Positions 3,666 to 52,101 of a stretch of 64,000 nt of DNA are shown here, piece by piece. Every line of letters begins with the position of its first letter. Position 1 is the stretch's first letter. The notes under the pieces are model-generated. The model was given only the letters and a program-made list of their open reading frames with translations. It was not told where the DNA came from and ran no database searches. The stretch is from Alphaproteobacteria bacterium. GTDB lineage: Bacteria; Pseudomonadota; Alphaproteobacteria; MPNO01; UBA830. The stretch is from positions 5,824,001-5,888,000 of the forward strand of contig OZ251539.1 of the NCBI GenBank assembly GCA_965243135.1. Reading direction: 5' to 3'. Position numbers and translations under genes: made by a program.

Positions 3666-4223
3666 TCACGGTTCGACAGGGCTTTCCGGGTGACGCGCCG
3701 TGGCGCGCGGCTTGCGTCCGTGAATCATCGATGCGACCAGGTTTTCCCCTTGGCGGACGGAAGTGAAGACCACGCCCGCCACATGAACGCAGGCCAGAAG
3801 GATCAGGAGATCGGCCGCCGTTCCGTGAATCGCCTCCATCCAAGCCAGTCCCCAGAACCGGTCGGTCGTATACAGCCACCCGGACGCGCCTGCGACGAAG
3901 CCCGTTCCCAGAAGAGCGACGATCATCCAGCCGCCCAACGGGTTATGGCCGAGATAGCGAGGTTCGGATCCTGACAGGACGCGGCGCGCATATGCCAGCG
4001 TCGCCGCCGGGCTGGCGACGAAACTGCCGAACCTGTCCTGTCGGCGTCCGGCGCAACCGATGAGAAATCGCGAAAACGCCAGCGCCAGCACGGCGTAACC
4101 CGCTCCGTCGTGCAACCATGAAGGTCCATGAGGCGTCAGCCACGAGACCGCGACGGAACAGGCGAGGCCCCAATGGATCAGCCGGATCGTCGGCGTCCAG
4201 ATTTTCGGATTGCCGGAGCCCAT
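3666..4223 (-). CDS. Cytochrome b (Ni/Fe-hydrogenase b-type/b561-like) membrane protein
   Basis: IRLIHWGLA, GHNPLGG, conserved His in TM helices, ENLVASMIHGRK. Confidence 0.85.
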   Translation of the reverse strand: MGSGNPKIWTPTIRLIHWGLACSVAVSWLTPHGPSWLHDGAGYAVLALAFSRFLIGCAGRRQDRFGSFVASPAATLAYARRVLSGSEPRYLGHNPLGGWMIVALLGTGFVAGASGWLYTTDRFWGLAWMEAIHGTAADLLILLACVHVAGVVFTSVRQGENLVASMIHGRKPRATARHPESPVEP

Positions 4224-4229
4224 GCGGCG

Positions 4230-4502
4230 TCATCGGGTGCTGGTAAAGACGTTCTCCAGCGTGACTGGGTGGAAATACGCCTCGACCCGTTGTCCGTTCG
4301 GATCCAGGGCGTAGACTTCCCAACAGCCTCCGTCTTCCTTGATTCGGCGGACCGTCCAGCCTTTCTCCGTCAAGCGCTCTTTCAGCTGTTCGTCGGATTG
4401 CCAGTTTTCGCGAGGCCCTGAATCGCAGGTGTGCAGGCCGGTTGCCGCGGCGGGCGCGGCCAACGTCAGGGCGATGCCGCAGGCAAGAAAAGTCGCTCTC
4501 AT
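4230..4502 (-). CDS. PepSY_2 domain secreted protein
   Basis: Signal peptide, GWTVRRIKEDGGCWEVYA...VEAYFHPVTLE; usual partner of the adjacent cytochrome b. Confidence 0.85.
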   Translation of the reverse strand: MRATFLACGIALTLAAPAAATGLHTCDSGPRENWQSDEQLKERLTEKGWTVRRIKEDGGCWEVYALDPNGQRVEAYFHPVTLENVFTSTR

Positions 4503-5087
4503 CTTTTGCGTTTCCGTTGGTGGCGCGAACGTCGCGAAGGAATCACGCGGGAGAGGCGCGTTTTCCGCCGCTCGGCCGCTTTCCGTCGAACGACCGTACG
4601 GCGGTTCGTGCCGGGCGGAGGCGTCCATCCCGCTGCCGTCGCCGGAACGTCGCGGCGATGGCGGCTTCTTCCAGTTTGGGTCGCCGATTTTCCGGCAAGG
4701 CTGGCTGCGCCCCTGCCGGCAAGGTGCCGCCTGGCCGCGACGGTTGCAGCGTCTGGCCGTCCGCATCGTTCGCGGGAGGTCGGCGACGCTGGTCGGAAAG
4801 ATTTTGCCTGTAGCCCGCCTGCCGCTCCGCTGCGGAGAACGGGCGGCCGGCGCGACAAACCGCGGGCCGAAACGCGGAAGAAGCTTCTTGACGGCTGGCC
4901 GCGGCATGTTTTCCCGCCTTCGGAAGCTTCCGACGATGCAGTCGCGCACGGATTTCGGGCGCCGGGCCGCTTCTGCGTCAAACCGTTCTGTCGCCGGATG
5001 CGCCATGAGTTCGCGCCGTGCGGCGAGGATGCGTTCGAGGACGGGAAAGGCCGGGAGCGCAAGCCTGTCCGAAGAGGCTCGCCTCGT

Positions 5088-6050
5088 TCAGAGCCGCGGA
5101 GCTTCTTCGGCAGCGTAGTCGAAATAAGCCGAGGTCACGAGATCGTGGAAAGTCCGGCAATGCTCCAGGAACTGCGGAAGGAGCGCTTCCCTGTCGTTCC
5201 GGTCGGGCCACTCGAAGCGGACCAACGCGCGGAGCCGCCCCGCAAGCCGTCTCGCCGCGTCGCCGGTTCTTGGCACCGGGTCCGGAGCCATGGCGTCCAG
5301 CGTTTCGGCGGCCGTATCGAGCGAACGGCATAGCGAACGGGGCAGCAGGCGATCGGTGACGAGCAGATCCAGAATTCTGTGCGGCCGGATCTCGACGCCG
5401 TAGCGGCCGCTGTAGGCGTCGAAAGCCTGATAGGCTCGAAGAAGATCCGTCCAGTCGGAATCGAGGGATTCGTCGCGCGCGGCGGCAAGCTGGGCGAGCA
5501 ACAGCGCGCTCAGAAGCTGGGCGCGCTCGATGGCTCGCCCAAGCTGCATGAAATGCCACCCCTCGTCGCGGTACATCGTGGTCTCCGCGACGCCCATGAA
5601 GGTGTCTATGTCCCGCGCCGTTTCCGCATAGAAGTTCTCGGGAGACGCCTTCCAGATGTCCTGGATGGCAAGGTCGCGGATTCGCAGATACGAGAGGTTC
5701 AGACTGGTCCACATCTCCCTGCTGATGCAGTGCCGCATCTGCCGGGCGTTTTCCCTGCCCATGGAGAAACAGCTCAGCACGGCGTCGGGGTTCATCCGAT
5801 CGAAAGTGAGGTTGTCGGCCAGCGTATAGGAGTCGGCGAGCGTGTATTCGTCGTCTCCGTGGAAATCGAGATCGCCGACCGGCGGTTGCCGGTTCAGATT
5901 GCCGTAGATTCGGCTCCATCCGAAGTGAATTTCCCGCAGCGGACGGTCCACCAAGGCTTCCACCTGCAGTCGCAGCAGGCGGCAGACATGCTCGGCCCGC
6001 TCAAGATAGCGACCCATCCAATAGAGGCCTTCTGCGTTGCGGGAAAGCAT
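5088..6050 (-). CDS. Alpha-E domain protein
   Basis: MLSRNAEGLYWMGRYLERAE, RENARQMR, QLGRAIERA, LPRSL. Confidence 0.9.
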   Translation of the reverse strand: MLSRNAEGLYWMGRYLERAEHVCRLLRLQVEALVDRPLREIHFGWSRIYGNLNRQPPVGDLDFHGDDEYTLADSYTLADNLTFDRMNPDAVLSCFSMGRENARQMRHCISREMWTSLNLSYLRIRDLAIQDIWKASPENFYAETARDIDTFMGVAETTMYRDEGWHFMQLGRAIERAQLLSALLLAQLAAARDESLDSDWTDLLRAYQAFDAYSGRYGVEIRPHRILDLLVTDRLLPRSLCRSLDTAAETLDAMAPDPVPRTGDAARRLAGRLRALVRFEWPDRNDREALLPQFLEHCRTFHDLVTSAYFDYAAEEAPRL

Positions 6051-7484
6051 TCAGTCCTCGAGCACCCAGACGTCCTTGCCGCCGCCGCCCTGACTCGAGT
6101 TCACGATCAGGCTGCCGCGTTGCAGCGCGACCCGGCAGAACGCGCCCGGCACGAGCCGGGTCTCTCGTCCGCGCAGCACGAACGGGCGGAGATCCACGTG
6201 GCGCGGCTCGAAACGTCCCTCGATCAGGCAAGGCGCCCGGGAAAGGCCGAGCACCGGCTGGGCGATGAAGTCGGACGGATCGGCCCGGATCTCCGCCGCA
6301 TAGGCGTTTCGTTCAGCGGGCGCGGCATGCGGTCCGACCAGCATGCCGTAGCCCCCCGAGCCGCCCACGCGTTTCACCACCAGCTTGTCGAGGTTGTCCA
6401 GAGTGTATTCGAGATCCTCCGGCCGACGGCACAACCGGGTCTCCACGTTGTCGAGAAGCGGCTCCTCTCCCAGATAGTACCGGATCATGTCGGGCACGAA
6501 AGCATAGACGCCCTTGTCGTCGGCGACGCCGGTTCCCGGCGCATTCGCCAGCGCGACGTTCCCGAGTTCGCAGACGCGCAGCAGTCCGGGCACGCCGAGC
6601 AGGGAATCCGGACGGAAGACGAGCGGATCCAGGAAGTCGTCGTCCACGCGGCGATAGATCACGTCGACGCGCCGCAGCCCCGTCGTGGTTCGCATGTAGA
6701 CGAAACCGTCCTTGACCAGAAGATCGCGGCCTTCGACGAGCGCGGCGCCGATCTCCCGCGCCAGGAACACATGCTCGTAGAATGCGGAATTGTAGACCCC
6801 GGGAGTTAGCAGCGCGATGACGGGCTCGGTTCGGCCGTCGGGAGCGAGTTCGCGCAGGGTCTCCCTCAGAAGCCTTCCGTAGTGTTCGACCCCTCGCACC
6901 CGGCAGCTTCGGTAAAGGCGGCGCAGGCTGGCCTTGACCGCCATTCGGTTGGCGATCATGTACGACACGCCGGAAGGCACGCGCAGATTGTCTTCGAGCA
7001 CCAGAAAACCGTCGTTGGTGCGCACGAGATCCGTGCCGCATATCGCGACCCAGCATCCGTCCGGCACCTCGACGCTTCGCATCTGGACGCGGTACTGCGG
7101 ACATCCGTAAACGATGTCGCCCGGAACGACGCCGTCGGAGACGATTCGTCCGGCGCCGTAGATGTCGTCCAGGAAGCGGTTCAGCGCGTCGAGCCTTTGA
7201 GCCAGTCCCGCCTCCAGTTGCTTCCATTCCGACCCCGGGATGATCCTGGGCAGGCAATCGACGGGAATGATGCGTTCCTCGGCTTCGCTCTCGCCGTAGA
7301 CGGTGAAGGAAATTCCCTCGTTCGCGAAGGCGCGGGTGACTCTTTCCTGGATGCCGTTGAGTTCGTCGTTCGATAACCGGCGCAGCGCATCGTGAAGGCG
7401 TCCGCTGTGTTCGCGCGCCTCGCCGTCAGGCTGGAACATCTCGTCGTAGATGGCGGCATCGAGTTCGTAGGCGTCGAAGTCCAT
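6051..7484 (-). CDS. Circularly permuted type 2 ATP-grasp protein
   Basis: LEDNLRVPSGVSY, VDVIYRRVDDDFLDP, GVADDK, SGGYGM, VNSSQGGGGKDVWV; start taken at MDFDAY. Confidence 0.92.
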   Translation of the reverse strand: MDFDAYELDAAIYDEMFQPDGEAREHSGRLHDALRRLSNDELNGIQERVTRAFANEGISFTVYGESEAEERIIPVDCLPRIIPGSEWKQLEAGLAQRLDALNRFLDDIYGAGRIVSDGVVPGDIVYGCPQYRVQMRSVEVPDGCWVAICGTDLVRTNDGFLVLEDNLRVPSGVSYMIANRMAVKASLRRLYRSCRVRGVEHYGRLLRETLRELAPDGRTEPVIALLTPGVYNSAFYEHVFLAREIGAALVEGRDLLVKDGFVYMRTTTGLRRVDVIYRRVDDDFLDPLVFRPDSLLGVPGLLRVCELGNVALANAPGTGVADDKGVYAFVPDMIRYYLGEEPLLDNVETRLCRRPEDLEYTLDNLDKLVVKRVGGSGGYGMLVGPHAAPAERNAYAAEIRADPSDFIAQPVLGLSRAPCLIEGRFEPRHVDLRPFVLRGRETRLVPGAFCRVALQRGSLIVNSSQGGGGKDVWVLED

Positions 7485-7607
7485 GTGCTTGCCTTGCGGA
7501 AGACTCTTTGCGCGGGGGCACCGCCGACCGGATAGCGAACCTATAGCCTGAAACGGTCGGGATTTCACGAGCGGCGCGCGGTTCCCGCGCATTCCGCGGG
7601 GCGGGAT

Positions 7608-7694
7608 TGGTGCGGGCGGGGAGACTCGAACTCCCACTTCCATAAGGAAACCAGATTTTGAGTCTGGCGCGTCTACCGATTCCGCCACGCCCGC
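7608..7694 (-). tRNA. tRNA-Leu(CAA)
   Basis: Reverse complement GCGGGCGTGGCGGAATCGGTAGACGCGCCAGACTCAAAATCTGG...GGGAGTTCGAGTCTCCCCGCCCGCACCA; long variable arm, CAA anticodon, encoded CCA. Confidence 0.95.
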
Positions 7695-7744
7695 CCGACG
7701 GCCGCATTTACGTTAGATCGCGCCTTGCAGTCAAGCGGCGCGCC

Positions 7745-8020
7745 GAACGGGCCGTTTGCGCTGCGTCATTTCTTGTCCGCCCGCCGCCCTGCGGATCGTT
7801 CCGCCCGCCGACAGGTCCGCAAGGGCCGCGCGGACGCTCGGTCTTCAGAACGAAAAGCCCGGTTGCCGCGGCGCCGCAAACCCTGGGCGAGCCGGACCGT
7901 GACGCGGGCGCCGGGTTGCGGTTGTGGAGGAGGCGGTCGGACGACCGCAACGGTCATCCCGTGTCGCGACCCGACCGGCGACCGCCCTGACGTTCTGCCC
8001 GCAGGCAGCCGAGCGCCATC
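7745..8020 (-). mobile_element. IS remnant (3' end of a DDE transposase plus element end), copy 1
   Basis: About 220 bp closely similar to 10592-10812; encodes MALGCLRAERQGGRRS; GCCGTTTGCGCTGCG is shared with ~38990. Confidence 0.6.
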
Positions 8021-8306
8021 GGAGTTGATTAGGGGGAACGAATTAGCCGTGCCGGTTCGGCAATATCGGACTTGCACCCCCCGCGACTTGGCATCGAGCT
8101 TGACGTATGCGCAACTGTCCAAGCTGGAATTTTGCTTGCACGGTCGTTCCCATGGCCCTGATCCAGCGAAGAATGCCTGATATCGCGGCTATCTGACCGC
8201 TTCTCCGCCACGTCCAGAGAATTTTTGCAACCCGGAATCGCCGAATCAGGCACAGAATAGTCGCTCATTTTATGTCGGACACGAACAAATTGGCCGCGAC
8301 CGCGGC

Positions 8307-8747
8307 CTACGCAGTTGAGTGAGGCCGCGGGAGCCACTTCGCACGCTTGGCCAACGCAAGCGCGTGCTGTTTTTGGATGTCTCGCCTTTCCACCTCGGCG
8401 CCGAGAATGGTCAGGACGATGTTCGCATGGTACGGGTTCTTCGGCAGCGGCGAGGCTTCGACGGTCCTTCGACATTCCGCGTCCCCCGACCGCGCGGCAC
8501 CGGCAATGAGCGTGGCTCAACCATAAAACTTAGCCCCCCTCCCTTCTCCCCGAGCGTCCGCCAGCGAGGCCATCGTTTCGACAGGCGCATAGTCCATGCG
8601 GTCCACGGAAACGCAATCGTCCTCCAGACGCGCGAGAAAGACATCTCGAACGATAGTGCCTCTGCGCGCGCGCCTCGCGGCACTGTTGCTGAACACGCTC
8701 CTGCCGAGCATTTCGTCATCTCGGATCGTTTTCTACGGCGCCGCCAT
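8307..8747 (-). pseudogene. Hypothetical toxin-like gene with two in-frame stops
   Basis: One 147-codon frame with TAG at 8733-8735 and TGA at 8517-8519; motifs LGRS, VSVDR, NPYHANI. Confidence 0.55.
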
Positions 8748-8748
8748 C

Positions 8749-9144
8749 TCAGGACTCGCGGCACAGTTCGCGCAACTGGGATCGAACAAAGTCGTCCGGC
8801 AAGTCCCTGGAATCGTCGTAACGAGCTCGTCGGTTTTTCCCTCCGACGCGCGAAAAGCACGCCGCCCCTCCGCCGACTCGGCTTAGCTCGATGACCACGG
8901 CCGACTCCTCGGAGTCGAACTGAATGGCTATATCGCCATCCTGCGTCCCGTACACCGTCGGCACGGCCTCCGGTCCCGCCAATGCAACCACAATCCTGCG
9001 AGCTTCGTCCTTCATCGCGGCGGTGCTTGGCGGCAAGCCGTCCGCCTTCATTTCGTCATCCAATTCGGCAATGTCCCTATACGCCTCAAGGATCCGCTCT
9101 TTGGCGATCCTGTTCCTGGAGCGTGGAGGGGCTACGAGCTGCAT
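8749..9144 (-). CDS. Hypothetical protein (possible antitoxin partner of the downstream pseudogene)
   Basis: Protein-like composition (PTVYGTQDGDIAIQF); stop sits 1 nt before the next ATG. Confidence 0.55.
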   Translation of the reverse strand: MQLVAPPRSRNRIAKERILEAYRDIAELDDEMKADGLPPSTAAMKDEARRIVVALAGPEAVPTVYGTQDGDIAIQFDSEESAVVIELSRVGGGAACFSRVGGKNRRARYDDSRDLPDDFVRSQLRELCRES

Positions 9145-10207
9145 ATCCGAAAATACGCCCCATTCTTCGAATTCAACTTCGCCGGCGCCAACGGGAGCTT
9201 GGCCAGATCGATCATTTTATCCCGCTTCATCTCCACAAAAAAGCCGACGAACGGATGCTCATACTTGAGCGGGGTCTTATGCCCGATAAGCATTTCGTTC
9301 AGCACGGAAGCGGAATGCTTCAACGTAGCGTCCATGCGCTTTTCCCGATCTCTACGCGTGCGTAAAGCAATGGACACTCAAGGTCGAGGCCGATAGCCAA
9401 CTGCATCCAGCCGATTTCGCATCGCCTTCTCCTCGTTTCCTATTTTGCGGTACAAGTCCCACGCTTGGATTAGATGATCGGGGGCATCCGCCGCCATCTC
9501 CATGCAACGCTCAATAGCTTCGACGGCTTTCTCCAGGTCCACGCGCTTCTCGTAGATCGTCGATAGATTGAAGTAGTAGCTCGGGTTCTCCGGGGAAAGC
9601 TCTATCGCCAAGTTTATGCGCCTAGCGCGTCGCCCGTCTCTTCTACGCCCAAATACAGCATCTGTAGTTGGTTGGCTATGGCGGCGCGAAACTCCTTTGA
9701 CCGAGACGCGTCATGAACATGCCGCTCAAGAACTCCCTTCGTCCTATCAAGTCCTTCCCGTTCCTGGTCTGTAGATACGTAGTACTGGACAACGCTTTCG
9801 ATAATGGTCCGGAGCACGGTTTCGTCGGAGATCCCGTCCGAGTCGACGGCATTGAGAAGGGGCTGAATATCGATCCGCGCGCCGACCGCGGCCAGCGCTC
9901 CAGCGGACAGCAGGTATTCCTCGTTCTCGGGACCCAACGTTTGCCGTAGTTCCGGCAGTATCGAGATGGCGGATTGCGTATCTCCGTTCATGAAGGCGTC
10001 TCTGAACGCCCTTCTGGGGTGGCGGAAACCTATCGGATGCACCGAGGGGAGCCGGTCAGTCTCTTTCGCCGTCGCCGAACCGTCCTGGGCCAAGCGTTCT
10101 TGGCGCGACTGTCGTCCCGGATCGCGCTCTTGCTTATTCCGCGCGGCCAGAACGGTGACCGTCCATCCCAGAACCAGGACAGCGACGGTCAACCCGGTCA
10201 CTGACAT
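9132..10207 (-). pseudogene. Membrane-anchored TPR protein, fragmented
   Basis: N-terminal TM, helical body, then frame break near 9612 into LAIELSPENPSYYFNLSTIYEKRVDLEKAVEAIE (TPR); further fragment 9132-9377. Confidence 0.55.
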
Positions 10208-10519
10208 TACAGGGAGCCAGTCCCTCGTCTCCTCCGGTTCGTGTTCTTGTCGCGCATTCTTTGCGATACCCGCCCTAATCAACTCCGTGGATGGCCTGCC
10301 TGACGGCACCGCGCCGCAGCCACTCCGTGGTCGGCGTGACGGCATGGCCCGACGACCACAGGGCAAGACCGGCGAAACGCCGGTCCTCGTCGGACTTCTC
10401 GACCCGCTACGTTTCGTCCTCCTTCATTCCCGCGTGCGATCTTGCGCCGCCTCTCGTTTCCGCTCAGGTCTTGGCACCGTCACCCACAGAAGATCAATAA
10501 TGCACCGTCCGCGCCCTTT

Positions 10520-42393: not shown

Positions 42394-45300
42394 ATGACGC
42401 GGAGTCCATCATCTGCCGACGCGGACGTCATTGTCGACAACCAAGAACGCAACGTAGCGGATTTCCTGCGCGACAGCATCGAGCCCGGGGCAGACCTGTC
42501 TTTCGTCTCGGCCTATTTCACGATCTACGCGTACGAAGCCATGCGCGATGCCCTGGAAACCGCTGGACGCATGCGCTTTCTCTTTGGCGAGCCGACGGCC
42601 GTTGGCGCGCCGGACCCCGGCGGAAACGAAGGCAAGTCTTTCCACCTGAACGAAGACGGCGACATGGCGCTGAAACAAGTCCTCGCCCAGAAGCCGCTGG
42701 CCCGCGCCTGCGCCGCCTGGATCCGGCGACAAGTCGAGATTCGAACGATCAAACGCGCCAATTTCTTACATGGCAAGCTCTATCACGTGGCACAAGCTGA
42801 CAAGACCGCGGCACTCGCCGGCAGTTCCAACTTCACTCTGCGGGGACTCGGCTTCGGCGCTACGCCCAATGTCGAGCTCAACCTGGACGTACGCCGCGAA
42901 GAGGATCGCACGGCACTTCTCGACTGGTTCGACGACTTGTGGCGCGATGAAGGCCTCACTCGCGACGCCAAGACCGATGTCCTTGCAGCGCTTGACCGAT
43001 TGGGCCGACCTTATTCGCCTGAGTTCGTCTATTACAAGACACTCTTCCATGTCTTCGAAGGCTGGCTGGAGAGACATGGCGAGCAAGACGGCCTGCTCCT
43101 CGACATCCATCTTCACGATACGGAGATTTGGAAAGCTCTCTATGCGTTTCAAAGGGACGGCGCGACCAGCGCGATCAACCGTCTTCTACGCCACAACGGC
43201 TGTATCGTCGCTGACAGCGTGGGCCTCGGAAAGACCTGGACGGCACTGGCCGTCATCAAGTTCTTCGAATTGCGCAACGAGCGGGTCCTTGTCCTCTGTC
43301 CCAAGCGGCTCGAAGATAATTGGGTCCGCTATACCGCTTGGGCAGCGTCACGCAACAACCCCTTCGAGAAGGACCGTCTGAACTACGCGGTGCGCGCGCA
43401 CACGGACCTCAGCCGTTACGACGGATGGGCCGGAGCGATCGATCTCGCCCAATTCAACTGGGGTTCGTTCGATCTGATCGTCATCGACGAATCCCACAAC
43501 TTCCGCAACGAAGGTCGGGATCGGCGGGACGACGCCGGCAACCTTGTCAGGCGTAGCCGCTACAACCGCCTGCTCGACGAGGCACTGAAGGGCGGAGTGC
43601 AGACCAAGGTGTTGATGCTATCCGCGACCCCGGTCAACACCAGCTTGCGAGACCTTCGAAACCAAATCTACCTCATGACCGAGAGGCGCGAAGACGCGTT
43701 TCGAGAAGCGCTTGGAATCGGAAACATCCAGTCGATGTTCGCCGTCGCTCAACGCGAGTTTCAGCAATGGGAAAAGACGCGTATCGGCGGCCGAAAACCG
43801 GATAAAGCGTCCCTTCTCGAAAGGCTTGGCGGGGACTTCCTGACTCTGCTCGACGCAGTGTCGTTCGCCCGCTCGCGCGAACATGTTCGCCGTTACTATC
43901 CCGAAGTGACGTCAGCCATTGGCGGCTTTCCACTGCGATCTCAACCGCGAAACCTGCATCCAGCGACGGACAGCGAGGGAGAGCTATCCTACGACGACCT
44001 TCATCGTCGCATCGGGAAATTCCAGCTCGCAGTCTACATGCCCTCACAGTATCTGAAGGATACGTCGATCCTGGACGAGGAGAAGGCGACACTGCGTTTC
44101 GACCAGCGGGACCGGGAGCGTTTCCTGATCGGCATGATGCGAGTCAACCTACTGAAGCGTTTGGAAAGCTCGGTGCATGCGTTCACGCTGACGATGCGCC
44201 GCATCCTGGACAAGATGGACAACCTTGATCGCGTGATCGAGGCATGGCGGGAACGCGGCGAGTCGGAAGAGATCGACTCGCGCCCGGACGAGGACGAGGA
44301 GGACGAGGAGTTTGCGATCGGAAAGGGACGGCGCTACCGGCTCGACGAGCTCGACGTCGAAAGATGGCAGCGGGACATTCACGAGGATAGGAAGGTTTTC
44401 GAGGAGTTGCACCGCCGGGCGGAGCAAGTCACCATAGATCGCGACGACAAGTTTGCAGAACTGAGACGGGTATTGAGGCGCAAAGTCGAGGAAGCGCCGC
44501 TCGACATGGATGGGCGCGCCAACCGCAAAGTGCTCGTATTCACTACATTCGCCGATACCGCACGCTATCTATACGGCCATCTTGAAGAATGGGTACGCGA
44601 CGAACTCGGCGTTCATATCGCTCTCGTCACCGGCGGCGACAGCAACCGGAGCACTGCGGGAACATCGCGGTTCATCGATATCCTGACGCGGTTCGCCCCG
44701 AGGGCACAGCAGGCGGAGAGCGAGAACGAAGAAATCGACATCGTCATCGCGACCGACTGCCTGTCAGAGGGCCAGAATCTTCAAGACTGCGATTTGGTGG
44801 TCAACTACGACATCCACTGGAATCCCGTGCGGTTGATGCAGCGATTCGGGAGGATCGACCGACTAGGGAGCCGCAACCGGCAGGTTGCAATGACTAATTT
44901 CTGGCCTACCGCTGACCTTGACCGCTATCTGGATCTGAAAAATCGCGTCGAGGCGCGTATGGCGCTTGCCGACGCCGCGGCGACCGGTCTAGACGACCCG
45001 CTCAATCGGGAGCGTCGGACCGAGGACGAGCAGAGAGAAAACGCGCAGATGGAACTCGCCTTCCGTGACCGGCAGCTGACCCGCATGCGCGAGGAGATTC
45101 TCGATGTTGAGGAGGCGGACGATGGCGTTGGCCTGAACGACCTTACGCTGGACGACTTCATCGCCGACCTGCTGCACTTTATCCAGCGAAACCGCGTTGC
45201 GCTTGAAGCCGCGCCGCTCGGCATTCATGCGGTCGTGTGCGAGAGCGCGGCGACCAGTTCGGACCGCCCACCGGAATCGGCGCGGCAGGGAGCGATCTTC

Positions 45301-45708
45301 TGTCTAAAGCATAAGGGCGCCCCGACAGCGAGAACGCCGAACAGGCTCTGGCCTTACTTCCTGGTGTATGTCCGAGATGACGGCAGCGTGCGCTACACTT
45401 TCCGGCAAGCTCGGCAATGTCTCGCCCTGTTCCAGGCGCTGGCCGCCGGACGGCCCGAGGCGGTATTGGCGTTGGAGGACGCCTTTGATCAAGAAACTGG
45501 CCAAGGCCGATGTATGGAAAAATATGATGATATGCTTGCCGCAGCGCTGCGCAGTATTGCCGGTACTTTCCGGGATGCAGAACTCGTCGGGCTGAGTCGA
45601 GACCGCGGAGCCGTGCTCACCGAGAAGTCGCAGCACCAAAAGCCAGCCGAGAATTTTACATTGATCACTTGGCTGGTCATTACCAATATCGAGGCACGAC
45701 CGCAATGA
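42394..45708 (+). CDS. SNF2-family helicase with N-terminal phospholipase D-like nuclease domain
   Basis: HGKLY...GSSNFT (PLD), ADSVGLGKT, DESHN, LSATP, SEGQNLQ, HWNPVRLMQRFGRIDR. Confidence 0.9.
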   Translation: MTRSPSSADADVIVDNQERNVADFLRDSIEPGADLSFVSAYFTIYAYEAMRDALETAGRMRFLFGEPTAVGAPDPGGNEGKSFHLNEDGDMALKQVLAQKPLARACAAWIRRQVEIRTIKRANFLHGKLYHVAQADKTAALAGSSNFTLRGLGFGATPNVELNLDVRREEDRTALLDWFDDLWRDEGLTRDAKTDVLAALDRLGRPYSPEFVYYKTLFHVFEGWLERHGEQDGLLLDIHLHDTEIWKALYAFQRDGATSAINRLLRHNGCIVADSVGLGKTWTALAVIKFFELRNERVLVLCPKRLEDNWVRYTAWAASRNNPFEKDRLNYAVRAHTDLSRYDGWAGAIDLAQFNWGSFDLIVIDESHNFRNEGRDRRDDAGNLVRRSRYNRLLDEALKGGVQTKVLMLSATPVNTSLRDLRNQIYLMTERREDAFREALGIGNIQSMFAVAQREFQQWEKTRIGGRKPDKASLLERLGGDFLTLLDAVSFARSREHVRRYYPEVTSAIGGFPLRSQPRNLHPATDSEGELSYDDLHRRIGKFQLAVYMPSQYLKDTSILDEEKATLRFDQRDRERFLIGMMRVNLLKRLESSVHAFTLTMRRILDKMDNLDRVIEAWRERGESEEIDSRPDEDEEDEEFAIGKGRRYRLDELDVERWQRDIHEDRKVFEELHRRAEQVTIDRDDKFAELRRVLRRKVEEAPLDMDGRANRKVLVFTTFADTARYLYGHLEEWVRDELGVHIALVTGGDSNRSTAGTSRFIDILTRFAPRAQQAESENEEIDIVIATDCLSEGQNLQDCDLVVNYDIHWNPVRLMQRFGRIDRLGSRNRQVAMTNFWPTADLDRYLDLKNRVEARMALADAAATGLDDPLNRERRTEDEQRENAQMELAFRDRQLTRMREEILDVEEADDGVGLNDLTLDDFIADLLHFIQRNRVALEAAPLGIHAVVCESAATSSDRPPESARQGAIFCLKHKGAPTARTPNRLWPYFLVYVRDDGSVRYTFRQARQCLALFQALAAGRPEAVLALEDAFDQETGQGRCMEKYDDMLAAALRSIAGTFRDAELVGLSRDRGAVLTEKSQHQKPAENFTLITWLVITNIEARPQ

Positions 45709-48700
45709 CTGACACACCGATCCATTCCCTGCACTCAGCGCTGGTCGATCTCGCAGGCCCGAATCCATTGCGAGCTGGAGCGGCGGAATTGCTGAACATC
45801 CTCGGTTACCGGAGCGACCGGACAGCGGATGCAGGCAGCGTCGAGGAATTTAAGAAACGCTTCGCGACCGATAGCGAGCTGACCGAAAAGCAGCGTGATT
45901 TGTTCGACTCATGGACCGCCGTCGACATCGTGTATCAGTTCACCTTAGAAGAGGTAGCCCGGCAATCCGAGCCGTTCGAGACCGCTAGCTTCGATAAGAG
46001 CCGGATCAAGTCTTTCCTGTTCCTTGCCGTGGACATGTCGGGCGACGCCTACGCGCGTACGTATTTGGCGGAAACGACCCGCACCGTGAATCGCCTCTTC
46101 GCAATGCCGGTCATCCTTCTATTTCGTCACGGTTCGACCTTGACACTTGCCACCATCCATCGGCGCGCTCACAGGCGGGACGATGACCTCGACGTGTTGA
46201 CCAAGGTTACGTTGGTCAAGGACATCCGCATCCACAGTCCGCACCGCGCCCATATCGAGATTCTTTCCGACCTCGCTTTCCCTCGCATGGTCAAGTCGGG
46301 CGTCAGCAGTTTCGACGGCCTGCACGCGGAGTGGGAACGGACGCTCGACATCGAAACGTTAAACAAACGTTTCTACCGCGAGCTGTTCTCCTGGTTCGAG
46401 CGGGTAGTCGCCGAGTGCCGCTTCCCTAACGACGGCGCAGGGGAAGGCGGTGCAGAACGGCATGTCATCCGGTTGATCACACGCCTTCTCTTTATTTGGT
46501 TTCTGAAGGAGAAGGGTCTAATACCCGAAGAATTGTTCGAGGAAAAGTTCGCTCGTTCCACGCTAAGGAATCATGCGCCGGAGCGGACAGACTACTACCG
46601 CGCAATCCTGCAAAACTTGTTCTTCGCCACCTTGAACACCGAGATCTGCAGACGACGTTTTGGCAGTCAAGGGGAACCGGAGAAACCTGAATTCAACGAA
46701 TATCGCTACCGCGACCTTCTGGCCGATCCGGACGCCTTTGCCAAAAGCCTGCAGGAGGTCCCGTTCGTAAATGGCGGGCTGTTCGATTGCCTGGACGATT
46801 TCGCAGCCGTCAGCTCGGACGGCGGGCTGGTCGACGCTTTCGCAGACGATCCGGTCCACCACAGAGAATTGTGCGTTCCTGCGCGCCTGTTTTTTGACGA
46901 GAAAGGACTGTTCGCGTTCTTCCGACATTACAAGTTCACGATCGAGGAGGGCACACCGCTCGACCGAGAGGTCGCTCTCGACCCCGAACTTCTAGGCCGC
47001 GTTTTCGAGAATCTTCTGGCTGCCTACAATCCGGAAACCCGCGCAACCGCCCGTAAAGCCACTGGCTCCTATTACACGCCCCGACCGGTGGTGGACTACA
47101 TGGTCCGTGAAGCTCTCACCGAGGCTCTAGCGGCCGTTACCAAGCCAGCGGACGGCGATATCGAATCCTGGCGCGACCGGCTCGAATATCTTCTCGACCA
47201 TTCCTCTGCGATGGACGACGCCGACAAATTCTTCAAAAAATCCGACAGGCGTGCCGTCGTGTCTGGCATCGCGGAGATTCGAACGCTCGATCCCGCGGTC
47301 GGTTCCGGGGCATTCCCTATGGGTATCCTTCAAACCCTCACCTTGGCGCTGCGCCGTCTTGACCCCGACAACGCGCTTTGGGAGGAAATTCAAAAGGAAC
47401 GAGCCATGGCGCGAGCCAGGCATGCGTTCGACACTCCGGACCAGACGTCGCGAGACGAAGCGCTGCGCGAAATCAGCGAGACATTTGAAAAATACCGGCA
47501 GTCGGACTTCGGCCGGAAGCTTTACCTCATTCAGAACGGCCTCTACGGCGTGGACATTCAGCCGATTGCCTGTCAGATCGCCAAACTGCGGGTTTTCATC
47601 TCGCTGCTCATCGAACAGCAGTCCGCCCCTGGTTTGCCAAATCTCGGCATCAAGCCGCTACCCAACCTGGAGACGCGACTGGTCGCCGCCGACAGTTTGC
47701 TCGACCTAAAGGCCGAAGCCACCGATCTGCTTCACGAGGACGCCTTGACGTCGAAGCAAAGGGAGATTGCGGCCGTACGCGAGCGTTACTTCCTGGCCGA
47801 CAGTCGGCCAATGAAACTCGACTGCATGCGGGAGGAGAAACGACTGCGCGGCGAATTGCGGCAGATTCTGGAGGCGAACCGCCGGGACTGGGTCGCAGCC
47901 CAAGAGCGGGATATCGAAAGCACGGCGGCGAGATTTCCCAACGAGGACGCACGCGAAACGTTCCGGGAAGAAGAGCGGCGCGAGCTCGCTCGACGGCTAT
48001 GCAAGTACGATAGGACTTTGGCCAGCGCCCGCATGATTGCCGAATGGGATCCGTACGATCAAAATGCCCACGCCGCTTGGTTCAACGCCGAGTACATGTT
48101 CGGTATTCACGAGGGTTTCGACGTAGTGGTCGGGAACCCGCCCTACATTCAGCTGCAAAAGGATGGCGGTTATGCCGGGAAATTCTACGCTGGTGCCGGA
48201 TATGAGACTTTCCAGAAAACGGGCGACATTTATCAGCTCTTTTACGAGCGCGGTTGTGGACTGCTCAAGCCGCAGACGGGCGTGTTAGCCTACATTACTT
48301 CCAACAGTTGGATGAAGGCGGAATACGGCAAACCACTTCGCCGGTGGTTCGCGGAACGCCACACGCCTCTGCAACTGATCGAATTGGGAAAGAACGTCTT
48401 CGAGAATGCGATAGTCGACACGGCGGTGCTGGTTGTCAGGAACGACAAGGACCAGCCTGTAACATGTCGCGCGGTGGATATCGAGGAGGAATCAGATGAC
48501 CGATTCCCACCGCTCAAACGAAACTGGGGGACGCTGCAACCGGAAGGTGAGAGGCCATGGATGGCTCTTTCCCAAGTCGAGCGGGCCATCATGAAAAAGA
48601 TGGAATCTGTTGGCACGCCGCTAAGGGAGTGGGATATCTCCATTTACTATGGAATAAAGACCGGCTGCAATGACGCGTTTGTTGTGGAAACCGCGGTGCG

Positions 48701-49381
48701 GGATCGGCTGATCAACCAAGACCCGGCCTCGGAGCAAATACTTAAACCGATCCTCCGAGGCCGCGATATAGCGCGTTACCATGCAAACTGGGCAGGACTG
48801 TGGCTGATTGATACGCACAACGGCTACGATGGCAATTACTCCCGATCGACGTCAACGATTATCCCGCGGTGAAAGCACACTTGGATAAATTCATTCGACG
48901 CCTTGAGCATCGTCAAGACCAAGGCGTCACGCCCTATAATCTCCGTAATTGCGCTTACCATGAGGATTTCAAAGGTCCCAAGCTCCTGTGGAAGGAAATG
49001 ACAGACCAAGGTTCCTTCGCATACAGTGAGACGGAGGTTTACACAAACAACAAAGCCTATATGATGACTGGCGAGCACCTGAGGTATCTTTGTGCTGTAC
49101 TAAACGGATCAGCCATATCTTGGCTGGTGGCAAAAATCGGGCTGACCACCGGAATGGGACTCATCCAATGGACGAAATTCGTTGTCGAGCAGATACCGAT
49201 TGTTCGACCTGATGAGCAGACGTTGCAGATCATCGGAGATAAGGTCACGCGTCTGACCGCCTCTCTAGATGCTGGAGATAAGCAGGAAGCCTTGGTAATC
49301 CAAGCCGAAATCGACAGCGATGTTTGCGAGCTATACGGCTTGTCAGGTCGACAAATCAAGGCATTGCGTAGAGCGAAGTAG
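45705..49381 (+). CDS. Eco57I/Type IIG-like N6-adenine methyltransferase with TaqI_C-like TRD (allele A); 1-nt frameshift at ~48840
   Basis: GSYYTP, LDPAVGSGAF, YGVDI, GNPPY; frame breaks at DGNY / PIDVNDYPAVKAHLD; ATGA-coupled to the helicase. Confidence 0.88.
48638..48808 (+). repeat. 171-bp inverted repeat, left copy (inside the MTase gene)
   Basis: Exact reverse complement of 49975-50145 by base-by-base comparison. Confidence 0.95.
48946..48962 (+). repeat. 17-bp nested inverted repeat, left copy
   Basis: TAATTGCGCTTACCATG; reverse complement at 49795-49811; both copies encode NCAYH. Confidence 0.85.
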
Positions 49382-49794
49382 CTCTTCTAATTCCCTTTTC
49401 TCCTCCTTTGTGATGCCGTAGCTCTCATACACGATGGCTTCGATCTCCGGTTCGATTTCCTGAAAATATGCACTACCCTCATCTAATTCTCTACGCAGTA
49501 AATCGTCGACAAGACCTTCAAGGTGAAGGCCTTCTGGAACGGACTTTGGTACAGGGATTCCTTCTACCACATACGCGATCCACCTCGCGGTTCCCATTCC
49601 GGATGTCACCGCTGTCTTGTTCACATACCAAGTGATCAGAGATGAGTTTAGAAAGGCAGCCAACTGCTTCAGCAATGGGCCACGCATAACGTACGCAGTA
49701 TTGGCACAAAACATCTCTGCTCCGGCGGGTGCGTAGGAAAACCTGCCCTCTGGAGTTAAATCCATCCAAAATAGCTTCTCTTCGGAAAACTGTG

Positions 49795-49811
49795 CATGGT
49801 AAGCGCAATTA
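49795..49811 (-). repeat. 17-bp nested inverted repeat, right copy
   Basis: CATGGTAAGCGCAATTA. Confidence 0.85.
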
Positions 49812-49974
49812 TCTTGAGAGTTCGTACCACGCATTGGATGTCTTCTTCCTTGACCGACCTCCTCCTGGCAATCGGCGTCCTTCCTGTGCCAACCGTTCTT
49901 TGCCAAAAGACAATAGATGTCGCTTGATCGCCGGATAATTGTCGATGTCCAGATTGAGGGACGGAAACGTCGAT

Positions 49975-50145
49975 ATCAGCCACAGTCCTGCCCAGTTTGC
50001 ATGGTAACGCGCTATATCGCGGCCTCGGAGGATCGGTTTAAGTATTTGCTCCGAGGCCGGGTCTTGGTTGATCAGCCGATCCCGCACCGCGGTTTCCACA
50101 ACAAACGCGTCATTGCAGCCGGTCTTTATTCCATAGTAAATGGAG
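49975..50145 (-). repeat. 171-bp inverted repeat, right copy
   Basis: Exact reverse complement of 48638-48808. Confidence 0.95.
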
Positions 50146-50156
50146 GTATCGACGAA

Positions 50157-51090
50157 GGTAATGTCACGACTTTATGTGTGAGAAAGAAAAGGGTGGTTAT
50201 TTCTTGTTGTGTAACGTACCCCAAGCCGCAGGCCGCACGACAACGCCCCGCAAATCGAGAATTTTTTCGCGGCAGCGCTCGCCGTTCAAGAGCTCGGGAG
50301 CGCGACGCCGAGGGCACGCCCTGTTTTCACGCCGCGCTGTTCGTGCTCGGAACGTTATGTCGCAGCATGATAGCGGTGCGCGTCCAGAGGTCCCATACTC
50401 AAGGTTGCACGCTACAGGGCGGCAGCCGCCGATCATGAGCGTTTGTCTTGGGAGGCGCCCATGGGGCAGGTTCGTCGCCGAACCTCGCGGAAACGGCACT
50501 CAATGACGTTTGTAGTGCTGACCTGTTGGCGCTGGTCTGTGTATCAGAAGCAGGCCGGCAGGAGATCGTCGCGCAAGTAGGCGGCGGTCTTGGGGTAGAC
50601 ATCTTGCACGCGTCTGGCTAAACGCTCGGCGGCGCGCCGGGCCTTGGTGCGGTCGAGGGCGAAAGCGTGGAGATCCCGCTGACGGCCGGGCTTTGCGAAC
50701 CTTGTCGATGACCTTCCTGAGCTTGTGCGCTCAGCGGCGCTGGACCGGGATTCCAACGGTGGTCAAGGCTGCCATCGAGCCTTGACCACCGTCGATGCAG
50801 ATCATCTCCAGACCTTCGCCGGTCAACCCACGGGCAAAGAAAGAAGTGTTTCCGCAACGCTCTCGGCTCTCACGCCCCTCAATGATCTCCGCCAAGACCG
50901 GCGGCCCAGAGGGCGGTAGCCCTCGCTCCAGTCCAGCCCTTCGGTTCGCATTGCCTTCACGACCTCGAATCCCTCCTGTAGGTTCTTGATCGTCGCAGTC
51001 TTCAGCATCGGGGTGCTCCTTATTCGTGATTGTCGCCTGACCGCAGCGAGTGCCTCTTTTCCCGGCTGACACATAATTTGATACATCACC
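50157..51090 (-). mobile_element. Decayed IS256-family element
   Basis: Ends GGTAATGTCACGACTTTATGTGT and (rc) GGTGATGTATCAAATTATGTGT; flanks ATCGACGAA/ACCGACGAA; transposase fragments GLEMICIDGGQG, IECRFREVRRRT. Confidence 0.8.
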
Positions 51091-51144
51091 ACCGACGAAC
51101 CGGATGTCCTACTGCGCCCCTTGCCTCAATAGGGGGATTATCGC

Positions 51145-52101
51145 ATGAACTATCCGCATAACGCGGCAGACTTGGAGCACTGCGCCGGCGCTGTCCGAAA
51201 AGCCGCTCATTCAGAAAATACGCGGACAGCGTATGAGAAGGGCTGGCAATGCTTCATCGCATGGTGCCGGAGCGTAGATTTGGTTCCGCAAAAGGCCGAG
51301 TCGGATGATGTCGTCAGGTTTTTGGTCGCGATGGCGAGCGAGGGCACGGCTGGCGGCAAGAAGCCGCTCGCGCTGAATACGCTTAGGCTCTATCGCAGTG
51401 GCCTGAATGACCAATGGCGTCGGATGGGGGCGCCTTCGCCCGCTTCCGCGAGGATGGTAGACGAGGTACTGCGAGGCTTGGCGAAAATCCACGGCGACGC
51501 CCCGCGCCGGGTAAAGGCTCTCAGGGAGTATCAGATTCGCGCGATGCTGAAGTCATGCGGCGGAGGCCTGCATGGACTTCGCGACGCAGCAATCCTGGCG
51601 TTGGGTTTCGCGGCAGCGCTCCGGAGATCGGAGTTGTGCTGCCTGCGGATGGAGGATCTCGAACGCAAGGGCGCCGAGGGCATGATGATTCACGTTCGAC
51701 GGTCGAAGACGGATCCGCAAGGAATCGGACAAAGGGTGGCGGTCATTGAGGGCAAGGTCATCAAGCCGATTGCGCACGTGGAACGCTGGCTAAGCGCATC
51801 CGGCGTTAGCGCGGGGTTCGTTTTTCAGACCCTACTGGCCGGCGGAGTGGCGTCAGGTCGGCCGCTCGATCCAGGCGATGTCGCGCGGGTGGTAAAGCGC
51901 CATGCCCGCAGAATTGGACTCAATCCGCGAGATTACTCCGGGCACTCCCTGCGGGCCGGGTTCGTAACTTGCGCAGCGGTGCACCACGCGAGGATCGACA
52001 AGATCATGGAGGTGACCCGACACAGGAACGCCGAAACCGTGTTGAAATACGTTCGCGACGAGGAGTCATTCGTCGATCATGCGGGTGCTTCGTTTCTCTG
52101 A
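51145..52101 (+). CDS. Tyrosine recombinase/integrase (Cre/Xer-like)
   Basis: SENTRTAY N-terminal domain; catalytic R (LRRSEL), K (RSKTD), HSLR, RH, Y (LKYVR) all present. Confidence 0.92.
   Translation: MNYPHNAADLEHCAGAVRKAAHSENTRTAYEKGWQCFIAWCRSVDLVPQKAESDDVVRFLVAMASEGTAGGKKPLALNTLRLYRSGLNDQWRRMGAPSPASARMVDEVLRGLAKIHGDAPRRVKALREYQIRAMLKSCGGGLHGLRDAAILALGFAAALRRSELCCLRMEDLERKGAEGMMIHVRRSKTDPQGIGQRVAVIEGKVIKPIAHVERWLSASGVSAGFVFQTLLAGGVASGRPLDPGDVARVVKRHARRIGLNPRDYSGHSLRAGFVTCAAVHHARIDKIMEVTRHRNAETVLKYVRDEESFVDHAGASFL

Follow-up and report, generated by a model that had tools for sequence, protein, structure and literature searches.

The window analysed here, a 64,000-nucleotide (nt) stretch of an alphaproteobacterial genome (assembly GCA_965243135.1, contig OZ251539.1, positions 5,824,001 to 5,888,000), carries a defence-type locus in which the 3' end of a methyltransferase gene is followed by an inverted cassette of the same kind. 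The gene (45669..49381, plus strand) encodes a Type IIG-like gamma-class N6-adenine methyltransferase with matches to Pfam Eco57I (E 6.7e-34) and N6_Mtase, a PADLOC REase_MTase_IIG match (E 2.6e-118) and a C-terminal target recognition domain (TRD) of the TaqI_C type; in the window it is split into two frames, 45669-48872 and 48869-49381. Its start is overlapped by 40 nt by the frame of a predicted HKD (PLD) nuclease and SNF2-type helicase of 1104 amino acids (aa) (42394..45708, plus strand; Pfam PLDc_2, SNF2-rel_dom, ResIII and Helicase_C; PADLOC 'HKD+Snf2' match C3a139, E 3.9e-111). Residues 1-430 of the methylase have no match to a Pfam nuclease domain; the only nuclease-like domain is the HKD domain of the neighbouring helicase, which we presume to be the restriction or motor partner of the methylase. 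Downstream lies a gene for a predicted tyrosine recombinase of 318 aa (51145..52101, plus strand; Pfam Phage_integrase PF00589, E 1.4e-14, residues 125-306), the presumed invertase. The spacer of about 1 kb between the inverted cassette and this gene (50151-51144) gave no domain match in the frames tested, and contains a perfect 15-nt hairpin (50756-50770 / 50778-50792).

The variable end of the methylase gene is enclosed by a long inverted repeat of 176 nt. The left arm of this outer repeat (48633..48808, plus strand; 171 nt exact from 48638) encodes the conserved stretch DISIYYGIKTG...ANWAGLWLI and forms a 99% complementary pair with the right arm (49975..50150, minus strand). In the expressed gene, the left arm is followed by linker module X1 (48809..48945, plus strand; 137 nt in the window and 135 nt in the sequencing runs described below), which ends ...TPYNLR and belongs to a type, beta, that is conserved in related loci. 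X1 leads into the left copy of a short inner inverted repeat (48946..48962, plus strand) and then into TRD body 1 (48963..49381, plus strand; stop codon 49379-49381), recognised by a TaqI_C match to residues 30-111 of the frame 48869-49381. The silent cassette (49343-50150, minus strand) consists, inward from the right outer arm, of linker module X2 (49812..49974; 163 nt in the window, 162 nt in the runs), the right copy of the inner repeat (49795..49811) and TRD body 2 (49343..49794; stop codon 49343-49345), the latter also with a TaqI_C match in the minus-strand open reading frame (ORF) 49343-49906. X2, delimited like X1 from translations, is of a second type, alpha, and ends ...RKKTSNAWYELQD. 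The outer repeat encloses the inner repeats, the linkers and both TRD bodies, and these two cassettes are the only ones of their kind in the genome. They overlap tail to tail by 39 nt (49343-49381), so that the last 12 codons and the stop codon of each are the complement of the other.

A sequence-only reading of this DNA had proposed the inner repeat as the true recombinase site, and a repeat search of the window confirmed the repeat itself: the 17-mer TAATTGCGCTTACCATG is present at 48946-48962 on the plus strand and, perfectly inverted and with zero mismatches, at 49795-49811 on the minus strand. No other match was found in the window, even with 3 mismatches allowed. None of 100 dinucleotide shuffles gave two or more matches of the 17-mer, and when the silent cassette was shuffled by triplets 500 times, the longest word that it had in common with the expressed cassette reached at least 17 nt in no shuffle and at least 14 nt in 4. 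A 14-nt core, TTGCGCTTACCATG (48949-48962 and 49795-49808), occurs in the whole 6.1-Mb genome in these two copies only. Alignment bore out that the DNA flanking the 17-mer is diverged, to roughly half identity. Both window copies read NCAYH in the TRD frame, as had been noted; this part of the reading stood for the window and failed for the public sequencing runs and for a sister species, in which the two copies differ by TAC and TAA. In the runs the right copy is preceded by TAC, not TAA (judging from a loose end ...GATAC, position 49809 is apparently G, hence TAC on the coding strand), so that the common repeat is the 14-nt core and the right copy reads TCAYH.

The runs also provide direct evidence of exchange at this repeat. 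The data are Logan contigs built from 31-letter words, and we read junctions, among the contig pieces listed, from runs X6 and X7 of one study (P3) and run X10 of another (P4); run X9 was too shallow and contained many foreign contigs. Because contigs are built from 31-letter words, a contig that breaks at a repeat of 14-17 nt implies that both continuations are present. Contigs of X6 and X7 cover 48779-48962, 48949-49808 (exactly 860 nt) and 49795-50004, and since they end at the core, the assembly graph branches at both core ends on both sides; these ends, together with the repeat search, delimit both copies of the inner repeat. Chimeric junctions of both predicted types were found. In X6 and X10, a contig enters TRD body 1 from 48949 and is preceded by ACGAACTTCAAGATAC, the reverse complement of the end of X2 with 49818 omitted and with C instead of A as its last letter. 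In X7, a contig aligned from TRD body 2 up to 49811 continues with CGGAGATTATAGG, the reverse complement of 48933-48945 and thus the end of X1. X10 additionally has contigs that span both parental junctions (48779-48978 and 49577-49817), and each of the three runs, which represent two studies and two host labels, yielded contigs of parental as well as chimeric junctions. As TAA remains attached to X1 and TAC to X2, the crossover lies inside the 14-nt core. The contigs support the inner repeat as a used crossover site and a real second recombination point. The idea that the 17-mer splits each TRD into two exchangeable modules held as regards exchange at the repeat, whereas the piece upstream of it proved to be a conserved linker type and not half of a TRD.

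For comparison with other genomes, species-representative genomes were scanned and the best 80 of 321 related loci were kept; they come from many phyla and include one from an archaeon. An inverted cassette adjoins the gene in 59 of the 80. In a species of the same genus (G002) the locus is intact and comprises the helicase, a methylase of 1206 aa, the inverted cassette and, directly after it, the recombinase, whose gene starts just before the right arm of the long repeat ends (9522 vs 9534). The outer repeat is 203 nt long there, and the exact inner repeat is a 23-mer, TTGCGCTTACCATGAGGAATTTG, which begins with the same 14 nt; TAC precedes the QDT-side copy and TAA the RN-side copy, a difference that the runs show too. 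The window and the sister species have orthologous linker segments, whereas all four TRD bodies are different. Further inverted repeats of 80-254 nt downstream of the sister locus (L013, 11135-15063) were considered as a second shufflon and discarded, as they are copies of a Mutator-family transposase element.

Two linker types recur across the related loci: alpha, ending ...RKKT.N.W[FY]E.QD[TS][CI][AS]Y, and beta, ending ...TPYNLRNCAY; a third, gamma, ends ...QRWGA.YW. We aligned 53 cassette pairs, namely those of the window and of the sister species and 51 others, after dropping rows with N, with stops or with a misplaced anchor (133 of 148 kept), and took the length of the open frame upstream as the guide to which copy is expressed. 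Expressed beta with silent alpha (22 of 53 pairs) and expressed alpha with silent beta (18) were the common arrangements; the others were expressed gamma with silent alpha (3), expressed alpha with silent gamma (1) and alpha in both positions (1), and in 8 pairs the expressed copy was unclear. Loci with a single cassette carry either linker type, which implies that both linkers are functional. Loci L021 and L025 have the same two TRD bodies (93% nt identity between the plus-strand cassette of L021 and the minus-strand cassette of L025, and 94% for the reciprocal pair), and these bodies sit on opposite linker types. Judged from the alignments, this arrangement is the relation expected from one inversion between inner cores. 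The minus-strand cassette of L016 (beta) likewise has 75-77% similarity to the plus-strand cassettes of L023 and L026 (alpha).

The same set of cassettes bears on an explanation in which the inner repeat is a mere by-product of amino-acid conservation at CAYH, with no exchange. The motif is indeed conserved throughout the family, including loci without an inverted cassette (for example L030, L045 and L052), and the identity of its codons between loci is fairly high. Identity within loci is considerably higher. The longest exact run overlapping the motif has a median of 17 nt within loci (at least 14 nt in 37 of 53 pairs and at least 20 nt in 24 of 53), compared with a median of 8 nt in 2756 cross-locus pairs formed from the plus cassette of one locus and the minus cassette of another (at least 14 nt in 12.4% and at least 20 nt in 3.2%); one of the 37 long-run pairs (L017) is the alpha/alpha locus, whose long repeat reaches the motif. 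At degenerate motif codons for the same residue, the codon is identical in 381 of 443 cases (86%) within loci and in 11371 of 17412 (65%) between loci, so that, as to the synonymous conservation on which the sequence-only reading had turned, codon identity exceeds what amino-acid conservation gives. In the twelve codons downstream there is no such excess (65/143, 45.5%, within and 3133/6956, 45.0%, between loci), and because the excess is confined to the motif, shared codon usage fails to explain the patch. Where residues vary between loci, the two cassettes of any one locus still agree, as in DDFSRPKIVWG (L061), EDFYKQKIIW (L055) and HEVFRQDKL (L024). The comparison thus shows, at the level of aligned cassettes, locus-specific maintenance of identity at the joint across a widespread gene family. 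Together with the chimeric contigs and graph branching at the core in three runs and the TRD bodies swapped between L021 and L025, these observations make a by-product of protein conservation extremely improbable.

Protein conservation does appear to account for the weaker 11-nt match that had also been pointed out, CCGGAATGGGA, which is present at 49149-49159 and 49592-49602 and encodes a conserved (T/S)GMG. We rejected it as a recombination site: a run of at least 11 nt occurs there in 1 of 16 within-locus pairs (the window itself), compared with 4.6% of cross-locus pairs. The match probably reflects amino-acid conservation plus chance; it is not recurrent and forms no part of the system.

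The enzyme responsible for the inner exchange is best approached through the genes beside the cassettes. NCBIfam Xer models match the window recombinase only far below the cut-off, which gives no XerC/D equivalog. Orthologues of it (46-76% identity) lie beside cassettes in 13 of the 80 loci, and all 13 belong to the clade with the YTGYGCTTAYCAYG core. Among ORFs of at least 230 aa sampled at other loci, a size at which smaller invertases are missed, a serine resolvase adjoins the cassette in L050, L073 and L075 and another tyrosine integrase in L055. The position of the identical patch differs as well: it begins one base before the Cys codon in the clade of the window and about 12 nt further on, at GGAGGATTTT, in Bacteroidota. 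That both the enzyme and the place of the patch differ would fit enzyme-specific sites.

An alternative is that exchange at the core is real and occasional, a product of RecA-type or microhomology recombination or of gene conversion, with the recombinase acting only at the outer repeat or elsewhere. No recombinase-site symmetry could be made out around the core, and the downstream patch of Bacteroidota, where some loci have serine resolvases, suggests that the patch need not be a fixed protein-binding site. Enzyme-specific sites would predict just such a shift where a clade has another recombinase, and core and recombinase orthologues co-occur in one clade that spans several phyla. Efficient homologous recombination usually needs homology far longer than 14 nt. 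In the SpnIII locus of Streptococcus pneumoniae, as reported by Li et al. (2016; PMC4948785), the recombinase PsrA is required by the 15-bp repeat IR1 but not by the 298- and 85-bp repeats; repeats of one locus can thus differ in machinery, as the alternative supposes, and the analogy drawn in the sequence-only reading, of a tyrosine recombinase that acts on a short repeat among longer ones, is accurate as far as that report goes. On balance, we regard an occasional RecA-type origin of the exchange as unlikely. By analogy with PsrA and IR1, and given the co-occurrence of core and orthologues, the adjacent tyrosine recombinase probably catalyses the inner exchange.

The protein model is compatible with a joint at this place. 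An AlphaFold2 model of the alpha linker and TRD of the sister species (277 aa, 57-row alignment) has a mean pLDDT of 82.7 and a confident TRD core; confidence is low at residues ~100-130, which comprise the alpha loop, the linker end and the CAYH joint. The best solved matches of the TRD fold are the DNA complexes of CamA and M.BseCI, followed by MmeI and BpuSI, and a Foldseek match to PglX/BrxX is weak (E about 0.02-0.03). In the model, the joint seems to lie in a loop that precedes the first helix and first strand of the TRD core, which might make it a plausible module boundary.

Outside the repeats, the window and the run contigs reveal what is probably an artefact of assembly. In the window, the reading frame is broken between X1 and the outer repeat and between X2 and the inner repeat. 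Contigs of X6, X7, X9 and X10 omit 48836 and 48844 and read G at 48837, and contigs of X6, X7 and X10 omit 49818, where X9 has no coverage. The differences between the window and the run contigs are limited to 48836-48844 and 49809-49818, where the window has two additional bases and a substitution in X1, and one additional base and probably a substitution in X2; over the remainder of the 3.4 kb compared, X6 and X7 are identical to the window. With the run-type sequence, the expressed gene becomes a single uninterrupted frame of 1236 aa, and the silent cassette can be read through from the outer repeat as far as its stop codon. The distance from the RGRDI codons to the core Cys codon is 219 nt (alpha) or 192 nt (beta) in 23 of 24 measurable related cassettes (252 nt in the exception), compared with 220 and 194 nt in the window. 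Because the family spacings agree with the runs, we read the window indels as a probable consensus error, which most likely arose in assembling a population of mixed isomers and less likely represents private mutations. Their placement in the linkers, 7 nt from the inner repeat for 49818 and, for 48836 and 48844, about 30 nt from where the outer repeat ends on its inner side, would be expected from mis-aligned reads of different isomers.

For the outer part of the long repeat (48648-48743 and 50040-50135), X6 and X7 also have a second version, which is diverged and joined to both flanks; its loose ends are 20 letters long at 48647 and 50136 and longer at 48744 and 50039. The assembled genome does not contain this version. 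The window-type continuation from the left flank (contig 48618-48667) has a depth of about 76 of 200 in X6 and of 21 of 41 in X7. The presence of the second version in the runs means that the population is not clonal, and it looks like a co-existing haplotype whose two arms have evolved in concert. Such a haplotype on both arms of the outer repeat lends something to an explanation in which the four arrangements are fixed in co-existing strains of a symbiont population, as products of past recombination with no ongoing phase variation. Parental and recombinant junctions are nevertheless found side by side in every one of the three runs, which cover two studies and two host labels; the recombinase gene next to the cassettes is still intact; and the core has been kept identical locus by locus, which implies recurrent use. 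We therefore give the fixation of old recombinants in separate strains only a small chance of being the whole explanation.

Taken together, the data make it very likely that a Type IIG-like adenine methyltransferase, partnered by an HKD-SNF2 helicase, has a nested (double) inversion switch in the 3' end of its gene. A linker module and then a TRD body form the end of the expressed gene, and the promoterless inverted copy downstream carries the alternative linker type with a TRD body of its own. By inversion, the 176-bp outer repeats would swap linker and TRD together, and inversion at the inner repeats, with their 14-nt core at the codons (N/T)CAYH, would swap the TRD bodies alone. Four complete alleles could be reached in this manner: beta-TRD1, alpha-TRD2, beta-TRD2 and alpha-TRD1. 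We infer that switching occurs within clones and that it alters the methylated and restricted motif.

Several points weigh against this nested-switch reading. The run data are assembled contigs and not reads, so that isomer frequencies cannot be read from them, and 31-letter words cannot show inversion at the 176-bp repeat, which limits the observed coexistence of isomers to the inner repeat. At least two haplotypes of the locus are present in the runs, and the isomers could belong to co-existing strains rather than to switching clones; moreover, X6 to X9 may include the source sample of the window assembly. The exact run at the motif is shorter than 14 nt in 16 of the 53 pairs, and the loci are related to one another, so that the contrast between within-locus and cross-locus pairs overstates independence. 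A full tyrosine-recombinase site would be expected to be longer than a 14-nt core whose flanks differ. Finally, the step from linker type or TRD swap to specificity, like that from recombinase to core, rests on inference.

How the four alleles would differ in function is less certain than how they would arise. That they correspond to four distinct specificities appears doubtful; two specificities in two linker contexts are more likely. A further, tentative possibility is that the alpha and beta linkers, paired in most shufflon loci across many phyla, form a second functional switch, which would make the arrangement a conserved 2 x 2 combinatorial switch whose inner joint is kept identical by selection for recombination. 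A linker switch might, for example, change the register or strand of methylation or its coupling to the helicase-nuclease. Were the paired linker types indeed functional, a determinant of the behaviour of Type IIG-like enzymes would lie outside the TRD proper.

Loci of this general kind have been described. According to the text of Milman et al. (2023; PMC9881135), long reads confirmed programmed inversions in Cj0031-like Type II enzymes with an upstream PLD and SNF helicase gene, with homologues in three phyla and an example in Bacteroides ovatus (CP083813.1, 5322008-5329826). The window locus belongs to class b of that study, as a gene-altering programmed inversion of a Cj0031-like, Type IIG-like methylase with a PLD-SNF2 partner. 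It has in common with those loci the PLD/HKD and SNF2 gene upstream of an Eco57I-type methylase, inverted repeats that overlap the 3' end and coexisting variants. It differs from them in the inner repeat at the CAY motif and in the two linker types, which the text consulted does not describe; the method used there merged nested close repeat pairs, and its repeat tables may list the inner repeat. In the literature searched, we recognised no description of two linker types or of a conserved inner joint at this motif.

Nested switches as such are already known in restriction systems. The SpnIII / Spn556II hsdS shufflon of S. pneumoniae, as described in PMC4948785, similarly has repeat pairs of very unequal length (15, 85 and 298 bp) in specificity frames near a tyrosine recombinase. 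SpnIII is, however, a Type I system with a separate HsdS subunit that has two TRDs, with three hsdS genes and with TRDs as the exchanged pieces, whereas the enzyme here is a single chain with one TRD body and one conserved linker. The window locus works like SpnIII, with two nested repeat pairs and more than two alleles, but is no member of it. Consistent with this distinction, HsdS and Methylase_S gave no match at the locus beyond a weak PADLOC Specificity_I hit (E 7.6e-4), and the TRD is fused to the methylase. In the BREX type 1 PglX of Lacticaseibacillus rhamnosus, nested inversions likewise affect a gamma-class methylase of related TRD fold; as presented in PMC9881135, they replace a middle part of the gene and pass through single-inversion intermediates that have no C-terminus, whereas here all four isomers would be complete frames. 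Ni et al. (2025, preprint; PMC11741434) describe a Phocaeicola vulgatus methyltransferase gene with three genotypes and three matching pairs of inverted repeats; it is similar in its multiple repeat pairs and in the coexistence of several genotypes in a population, and the text consulted states neither its family nor where its repeats lie. As to the gene sets of DISARM (DrmA/B/C) and BREX (BrxA/B/C and PglZ), the two upstream frames tested had no PADLOC match, and the locus has only partial DrmD-like and PglX-like domain matches.

The nested arrangement means that one cassette pair can give four complete alleles instead of two, and the same short in-frame joint recurs across a widespread family of defence methylases. 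This is relevant to the reading of methylomes and phage resistance, in uncultured symbionts as in gut bacteria. Mixed populations can also yield wrong assemblies of such loci, as exemplified by the frameshifts in both cassettes of the closed genome that are absent from the run contigs.

Some additional features were noted at the locus, elsewhere in the genome and among the relatives. Each arm of the outer repeat contains an imperfect palindrome (48724-48763 and 50020-50059) with arms CGGCCTCGGAG / CTCCGAGGCCG of 11 nt and a loop of 18 nt; we set it aside as lineage-specific or due to chance, since it was not found in 14 related loci. Also in the outer repeat, GCGCGTTACCATG (RYHA codons) resembles the core; it is found only in some relatives and was not used as evidence. 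The same genome has a second helicase and methylase pair (L014; G000:C1:3928000-3940000, minus strand, frames 7261-10470 and 3738-7268), whose methylase is 56% identical to that of the window over the methylase core. We rejected this paralogous pair as a source of information on the motif, since it has another C-terminal domain and neither an inverted cassette nor a long inverted repeat. Among the relatives, an uncultured Bacteroidales contig (L088) carries two extra TRD-body cassettes (5783-6178 and 7201-7647) in direct orientation, each starting at the DDFNQPKI patch, which suggests switching of a deletion/duplication type, or with multiple cassettes, at the same joint.

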